Program-made: the position numbers and the translations under genes
The notes under the pieces: model-generated
The model's input: only the letters and a program-made list of their open reading frames with translations
Database searches by the model: none
What the model was told of the DNA's origin: nothing
Shown: positions 43,119-43,312 of the stretch, in pieces
Position numbering within the stretch: the first letter of the stretch is position 1
Layout of the letters: each line of letters begins with the position of its first letter
From: Eledone cirrhosa
Lineage: Eukaryota
NCBI GenBank assembly: GCA_964016885.1
Contig: OZ024765.1
Span: 16,182,001 to 16,246,000 of the forward strand
Direction of reading: 5' to 3'
Length of the DNA stretch: 64,000 nucleotides

Positions 43119-43120
<2 letters not shown>

Positions 43121-43309
43121 CGAAGGAAATGTGGTAAGAAACCAGGTGGACCATAACGCACCAAAGTACTCAATACTTAGGGTAGTAGAGTGGGTAATAG
43201 GAACAAGTAAGACCCCGACGGCTGAGCTCAAGCCGTTTCGACGGCTAATTCTGTACAGAATTAGCCGTCGAAACGGCTTGAGCTCAGCCGTCGGGGTCTT
43301 ACTTGTTCC

Positions 43310-43312
<3 letters not shown>
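43119..43312. mobile_element. Family D fold-back mini-element, perfect palindrome
   Basis: Arms 43197-43312 centred on TGTACA (43252-43257). GAAAC at 43270, GTC at 43290-43292. A collapsed copy follows at 43447-43587. Confidence 0.9.

Follow-up and report, generated by a model that had tools for sequence, protein, structure and literature searches.

The window analyzed here, a stretch of 64,000 nt from Eledone cirrhosa, is AT-rich animal DNA dense in (TA)n, (CA)n and (ACAT)n runs. It contains four copies of a short repeat, family D, and an earlier note had described those at 43119, 27885 and 27630, together with a collapsed one at 43447, as bearing only the 3' half of a hammerhead ribozyme. 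A BLAST search of the window with the element recovered these four copies in one common orientation, with identities to the 43119 copy of 92% (27885), 82% (27630) and 74% over 105 nt (43447), and the description is borne out: none of them carries CTGANGA. The 14-mer GCCGTCGAAACGGC has nine matches in the window at three or fewer mismatches (0.19 expected), and seven of the nine lie inside the four copies. The copies are paired, 27630 and 27885 being 255 nt apart and 43119 and 43447 being 328 nt apart, in the same orientation and in (TA)n-rich tracts.

The sense strand of family D is the minus strand of the window, and on it there follow one another an inverted arm, a central hairpin, GAAAC-stem III-GTC, GGGGTC, about 90 nt more and finally a CGT set against (AT)n, the tail beyond the half-hammerhead measuring ~97 nt (table 1). 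The segment 43197-43312 equals its own reverse complement with a spacer of 0, so that the perfect 116-bp palindrome previously reported is confirmed. This inverted repeat spans 116 of the 193 nt of the 43119 element; the other end is a unique one-sided tail, the final 77 nt having no mirror image. The inverted arm of this copy ends 17-20 nt beyond the cut triplet, before the tail hairpin. In the 43447 copy, GAAAC and stem III are kept in the inverted arm only, the tail-bearing arm having lost both. The family has no ORF and is flanked by (TA)n on both sides, so that any target-site duplication would be masked.

Table 1. Positions of family D, its parts and the related hammerhead families in the window.
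Feature	Position	Strand	Remark
Whole D element: inverted arm, direct arm and tail	43120..43312	-	between (TA)n runs
One-sided tail, CGT end against (AT)n	43120..43196	-	putative distal RT start, following results given in PMC11167929
Bulged hairpin ACTC-TAC-loop-GTA-TT-GAGT(AC)	43166..43191	-	common to family A, family 8322 and two published Hydra ends
Direct arm	43197..43254	-	with stem II 3' strand and stem III
Direct-arm GAAAC	43235-43239	-	
Direct-arm GTC	43217-43219	-	
Direct-arm GGGGTC	43211-43216	-	stem I 3' strand
Junction hairpin at stem II position	43240..43269	none	centre GTAC, spacer 0
Inverted arm	43255..43312	+	second half-hammerhead at 43270-43298
Second full D copy	27886..28079	-	imperfect 15-nt centre
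Older D copy	27631..27812	-	9-nt loop, arms decayed
Diverged D copy	43448..43585	-	internal deletion, CGC end
Family A	1862-2060	-	complete Hydra-type hammerhead
Family A	33590-33795	+	complete Hydra-type hammerhead
Family A	48507-48701	+	complete Hydra-type hammerhead
Family A, diverged copy	~1660-1845		
Family 8322, fold-back	~8165-8490	-	complete hammerhead, D-like tail hairpin, zero-spacer centre
Minimal-hammerhead family	43786-44060	-	
Minimal-hammerhead family	33346-33535	+	
Minimal-hammerhead family	29400-29801		
Minimal-hammerhead family	57882-58030	-	

Of the parts that define a type I hammerhead, GAAA, stem III and the NUH triplet are present in family D as GAAAC-GGCT..AGCC-GTC. The CUGANGA core 5' of stem II is absent from the four copies and from the 30 nt seen of a longer class of relatives described below; the stem I strand that adjoins the core is absent as well, GACCCC being found only in the mirrored arm and nowhere in the 30 nt of the longer class. 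Lacking both core and stem I strand, family D is not a member of the hammerhead family. The window contains 37 CTGANGA sites, none of them within any D copy, and GACCCCCTGANGA has no match in it at zero or one mismatch; at two mismatches there are 19 matches, all outside the D copies, and 17 of these are one recurring 13-mer. Type II and type III hammerhead folds and an HDV-like fold were also considered by eye, and for these too D has no core.

Intact natural hammerheads that share the 3' half of D do exist. A pattern scan of metagenome and viral collections found the core together with this 3' half at 7 and 32 loci, respectively (39 together), and 25 of the 40 pattern matches have at least 3 bp in both stem I and stem II. 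The viral contigs among them (L008-L039) carry type I hammerhead motifs with this half, one contig (L028) having two ~480 nt apart. None of the 39 loci is the parent of D, since in BLAST comparisons the D tail is absent from all of them; scans of the collections likewise gave no match to the tail in metagenome contigs and none in viral contigs.

It is in the tail that family D resembles the complete hammerhead families of the window. Counted from the cut triplet, GAAA lies at -23, the tail hairpin at +27 and the end at +97 in D; in family A, which has an intact CTGATGA, the corresponding positions are -20, +29 and +90, its arms ending at about +22 to +27. The tails of the 43119 copy and of the family A copy at 1990 have 17 of 18 nt alike, a value reached by none of 2000 shuffles; for the remaining three D copies the match to family A is weak, being equalled in 32-728 of 2000 shuffles. 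The piece common to the two tails is a bulged hairpin, CTC-TNN-loop-NNA-TN-GAG. A descriptor of it has eight matches in the window, where 30 block shuffles averaged 0.4, but the descriptor was written after the motif had been seen and this count is not a blind test. Seven of the eight lie in hammerhead families; D and A account for three matches each, the 8322 family for one, and the last is a solo one at 6173. On folding, the tail of D shows no advantage over shuffled sequence (z -0.24), the hairpin is absent from the minimum-energy fold of the A1990 tail, and MAFFT left the tail hairpins out of register. Ten of 117 (TA)n junctions have a CGT or CGC ending, and nine of the ten belong to the hammerhead families. 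The half-hammerhead of D is thus likely to be real and of hammerhead ancestry, as had been proposed, judging by its position relative to the tail hairpin and 3' end, which is that of intact family A, and by the occurrence of the same 3' half in intact natural hammerheads.

The stems of family A fit the Hydra pattern ctgatgat..tgaa-acag..ctgt-a, and its fold-back lies just 5' of stem I, with junction spacers of 3, 4 and 1 nt. The minimal-hammerhead family has complete type I motifs at 43883-, 33438+, 29451-, 29704+ and 57979-, a 50-nt tail ending in CGT(AT)n, a variable fold-back point and no tail hairpin by the descriptor. The solo match at 6173 belongs to a tail-like piece at ~6090-6242 (+), with CCATTACCC upstream as in D and with neither palindrome nor hammerhead. 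At 33130-33290 there are fold-back arms with GTC-GAAA-hairpin-GTC like those of D, but with the GAAA paired, and with a long unique side (32940-33130). Another fold-back family is found at 32410-32556 (1-nt spacer at 32485), 43040-43084 and 16252-16330; its truncated pieces adjoin (TA)n, one of them directly left of the 43119 copy. A tandem array of ~30 copies of a 129-bp unit occupies 35121-38955 and has one frame open (1284 codons). One nearby repeat has a cephalopod-like look, on which none of the conclusions here depends.

The abundance of family D and the constancy of its ends were examined by mapping 27886-28053 against four of 15 listed sequencing runs (X1, X4, X5 and X13); X13 consists of reduced-representation raw reads with the same species label as X1, from which the window may itself come. 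Matches were obtained in 13,654 contigs of X1, 22,916 reads of X13, 396 contigs of X4 and 2 contigs of X5, figures in which mapped depth does not equal copy number. The two contigs of X5, at a depth of ~2, were treated as trace rather than as a sign of a second host. In X13, (AT)n immediately precedes 27963 in 3570 reads, and 1415 reads of a variant type are clipped at 27975 and have an identical TATA-GGAA border. Both classes are inverted arms mapped in reverse, and hence the arm has a single end point, 17-20 nt beyond the cut triplet. At 28016, X13 also shows 7226 ends of molecules and 1005 loose ones; these coincide with an AATT site, probably the cut of the library enzyme, and were set aside on that ground. 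In such mapping right arms fall onto the left arm, which masks the orientation of the loop relative to the tail.

The same mapping revealed relatives of D that are not palindromic. In X13, 1735 reads diverge from the mapped stretch just beyond the first stem strand (28013) and continue for a median of 80 nt that match nothing in it. The longer class is known from a 30-nt majority line, 358 weaker rows lying outside those shown; its agreement is 0.76 in X13 and 0.48 in X1 (116 contigs), with 22 of 30 columns alike. On the sense strand it has a hairpin of ~6 bp whose loop resembles the one in the 27630 copy, and the central hairpin therefore exists without fold-back, in accordance with the proposal of the earlier note that the turn falls within the hairpin before GAAAC. 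Since only ~6 bp are present without fold-back, the long "stem II" of D is partly a by-product of any palindrome centre. At the core position the longer class reads CTAATACT, which matches at three of six informative core positions, about chance level, and no GACCCC occurs in the 30 nt shown; the 43447 copy has ACTGCT and GATC in common with it. The predicted parent, with GACCCC-CTGANGA just upstream of the hairpin, did not materialize either in the window or among the loose ends shown. Where an intact-core parent would diverge, between bins 28030-35 and 28042-47, the depth in X1 falls from 520,386 to 491,176, a drop of ~6%. As the longer class keeps the central hairpin and has no core in its 30 nt, the ribozyme may have been dead before the fold-back arose; a rarer parent with an intact core is possible.

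What, then, was the source of this tail? According to the supplement of PMC8557442, nearly all Penelope-like elements (PLEs) of the Hydra clade combine insertion into (TA)n with a hammerhead, mostly near the 3' end. Family D likewise inserts in (TA)n, as judged both from the window copies and from the (AT)n loose ends of mapped reads, and its half-hammerhead lies 90-99 nt from the 3' end, compared with 35-115 nt for the elements in File S2 of that supplement. Its structure is also that of a PLE insertion, with an inverted 5' copy that is shorter by the 77-nt one-sided tail and has a fixed arm end. Five of the six new Hydra consensus 3' ends in the supplement were compared by eye. Two of them show this hairpin too, with compensatory pairs: it lies at +45 in Hydra-2_Amil, whose tail measures 96 nt, and at +40 in Hydra-2_Ajap, whose tail measures 87 nt; the other three stop within ~50 nt of the cut and have no clear match to the hairpin. 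The two matching ends were not used for the first alignment but had been seen before the descriptor was written. D's own motifs have only short incidental matches in the supplement. The tail of D is very probably the 3' end of a PLE, and that PLE probably belonged to the Hydra clade. D itself does not have the ORF of an autonomous element of this clade, with an RT and, C-terminally, a GIY-YIG domain, and no autonomous partner was found in the window, where 127 of 168 stop-free stretches were scanned with neither an RT nor a GIY-YIG Pfam match.

We thus consider it likely, with somewhat less assurance than for the tail, that family D is a protein-free (TA)n repeat in which the 3' end of a Hydra-clade PLE has been copied head to head, joined at the position of stem II and left with no core. 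We infer all of the protein steps in the following model. A Hydra RT-endonuclease acting in trans would bind the tail hairpin and nick both strands of the (TA)n target; one cDNA would begin with the CGT end (+97), the other somewhere around +17 to +23, these two starts defining the PLE "tail". Both cDNAs would then stall in the stem II hairpin, and joining and fill-in of their self-complementary 3' ends would follow; the template is likely to have been a longer RNA with a core that had already degenerated. A purified PLE protein is reported to nick and extend both target strands, and to start at two internal sites that bound the tail, with no need for ribozyme cleavage in vitro (PMC11167929). 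The two-cDNA join is favored by the ends of D at +97 and at +17 to +20 with a hairpin between them, as with the two starts of that protein.

The earlier note had proposed instead that a single cDNA of an intact-hammerhead element folds back on stem II and primes itself, each copy losing the catalytic strand. Several observations speak for it: the turn sits in a hairpin that non-palindromic relatives possess, a cDNA ending past the loop folds into this very hairpin, and PLE copies in inverted arrangement, with a tail and a palindrome at the junction, have been read as products of self-priming, though on an antisense template (PMC3846280). The spacers divide the evidence. At 11 clear fold-backs in the window (a twelfth region has no clear centre) they measure at least 3 nt in seven, as a snap-back would allow, and 0-1 nt in four, which is too tight for a simple hairpin primer. 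Against the scheme stand the absence of a GACCCC-CTGANGA parent from the window and from the loose ends shown, and the slight fall of X1 depth at the place where such a parent would exit; moreover, snap-back alone gives no reason for the inverted arm to end at a constant position, 77 nt before the 3' end. This fixed end fits a head-to-head join of two cDNAs somewhat better, and together with the tight spacers it makes such a join at least as good an account of the palindrome as the intramolecular snap-back. In its complete form the earlier scheme seems to us unlikely.

Slightly less likely still is a third scheme, in which the palindrome arose only a few times and the whole 190-nt unit has since spread as a SINE-like, non-autonomous master through the same PLE machinery. 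The fixed ends, the subfamily-level variants and the few dominant loop types (for example, C>A at 28021 in 316,733 of 340,460 depth units of X1) are what it would lead one to expect, and so is the finding that no variant private to one of the three full copies recurs in that copy's other arm. It is opposed by the three different palindrome centres of these same copies, by the existence of the longer non-palindromic class and by the difficulty that an RT would presumably have in copying a perfect 58-bp hairpin. As the head-to-head reading would have it, the two arms of a copy carry matching variants at three sites, which shows that one arm was copied from the other, or converted, after the subfamilies had split, not necessarily at each insertion. 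These variants are common in the population, in 27-41% of plus-strand first mates of X13, and the fold-back is therefore dated only to the level of subfamilies. For the origin of the palindrome as such, the joining of two cDNAs is our leading candidate, at a little under an even chance; snap-back is a distinctly weaker possibility and inheritance from a palindromic master a slightly weaker one again, and the three are not mutually exclusive.

Should no copy anywhere have a core, the earlier note would have family D regarded as an ordinary MITE or fold-back element. Under such a reading, its GAAAC..GTC would come from the nested duplication of one 7-bp word. Such a word and its complement do alternate six times in D, AGCCGT-CGAA-ACGGCT is itself a hairpin, and AGCCGTCG is present at the 3' side of both hairpins; local duplication of this kind may have shaped the half-hammerhead motif in part. 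In addition, Rfam has no match at gathering score in the whole window, and the 34 matches at E <= 10 in 43100-44100 are all below that score and include no hammerhead family, but this blank is uninformative because the intact hammerhead near 43850 was missed too. The fallback is improbable: D has no terminal inverted repeats at both ends, its tail is one-sided and PLE-like, and the tail hairpin, its spacing and the CGT end are common to the intact-hammerhead families and to Hydra PLE ends. Least probable of all is the idea that a separate RNA with the CUGANGA strand cleaves the half-motifs in trans, for while GAAAC, stem III and GUC are intact in young copies and minimal PLE hammerheads are thought to act as dimers (PMC4209133), a 58-bp duplex is predicted to enclose the site in any read-through transcript, no matching enzyme strand occurs in the window or among the loose ends shown, and CpG-type changes (G>A) are common in the arm in mapped reads.

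If family D is indeed a stub of a Hydra PLE, the element would spread without a working ribozyme. A more ambitious reading, which we put forward tentatively, is that D is the minimal unit of Hydra-type PLE machinery, the hairpin it shares with coral and sea cucumber elements being an RT-binding signal flanked by two RT starts, with cDNAs primed on opposite strands of (TA)n being joined inside stem II. If true, a single model would account for both the inverted ends and the tails of PLEs, and the hammerhead would be dispensable in vivo in a family of very high copy number; how these ends and tails are formed, and the role of the hammerhead, were stated to be open questions in PMC8557442. With its template of ~100 nt, fixed ends, candidate binding hairpin and very many natural copies, D should allow snap-back to be distinguished from the joining of two cDNAs. 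If transcribed, its thousands of perfect 50-60 bp hairpins would also be ready ADAR substrates, as has been shown for a palindromic frog repeat (PMC5625713).

Several known systems resemble family D in part. The closest are the Hydra-clade PLEs (Craig et al. 2021, PMC8557442), with the same (TA)n target, in several members the same cgaa-ac..gt junction, a hammerhead mostly near the 3' end and, in Hydra-2_Amil and Hydra-2_Ajap, the bulged tail hairpin; D differs from them in having neither ORF nor CTGANGA, in being nearly all palindrome and in its longer stem III (6 bp plus a 7-nt loop). The inverted pLTRs of Penelope elements in Adineta vaga (PMC3846280) are likewise head to head, with a palindromic junction and an inverted copy shorter by the tail, but theirs is a 31-37 nt tail flanking low-copy elements that bear ORFs, whereas D has one of 77 nt in a unit of only ~190 bp, with its junction falling inside the hammerhead. 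Poseidon PAc of Anolis (Frangieh et al. 2024, PMC11167929) also has its 3' end ~90 nt past the cut site; its RT starts at ORF +111-118 and its cut is at +26, with ribozyme cleavage dispensable in vitro. It belongs to a clade other than Hydra, and the joining of two cDNAs is not among the results in the portions of that paper considered here. Non-LTR retrozymes (PMC7229834; bioRxiv 10.64898/2026.07.22.740005) resemble D in being short, non-coding, hammerhead-related and tied to PLE ends, but as described there they are head-to-tail repeats with complete hammerheads and circular RNAs, whereas D is dispersed, head to head and without a complete hammerhead in any unit. The literature searched, which lay outside Repbase sequences and most subscription papers, yielded no description of family D or of its tail hairpin. 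The general architecture of inverted PLE ends and palindromic junctions is already known; the new details appear to be the core-less, high-copy unit, the junction at stem II and the common tail hairpin.
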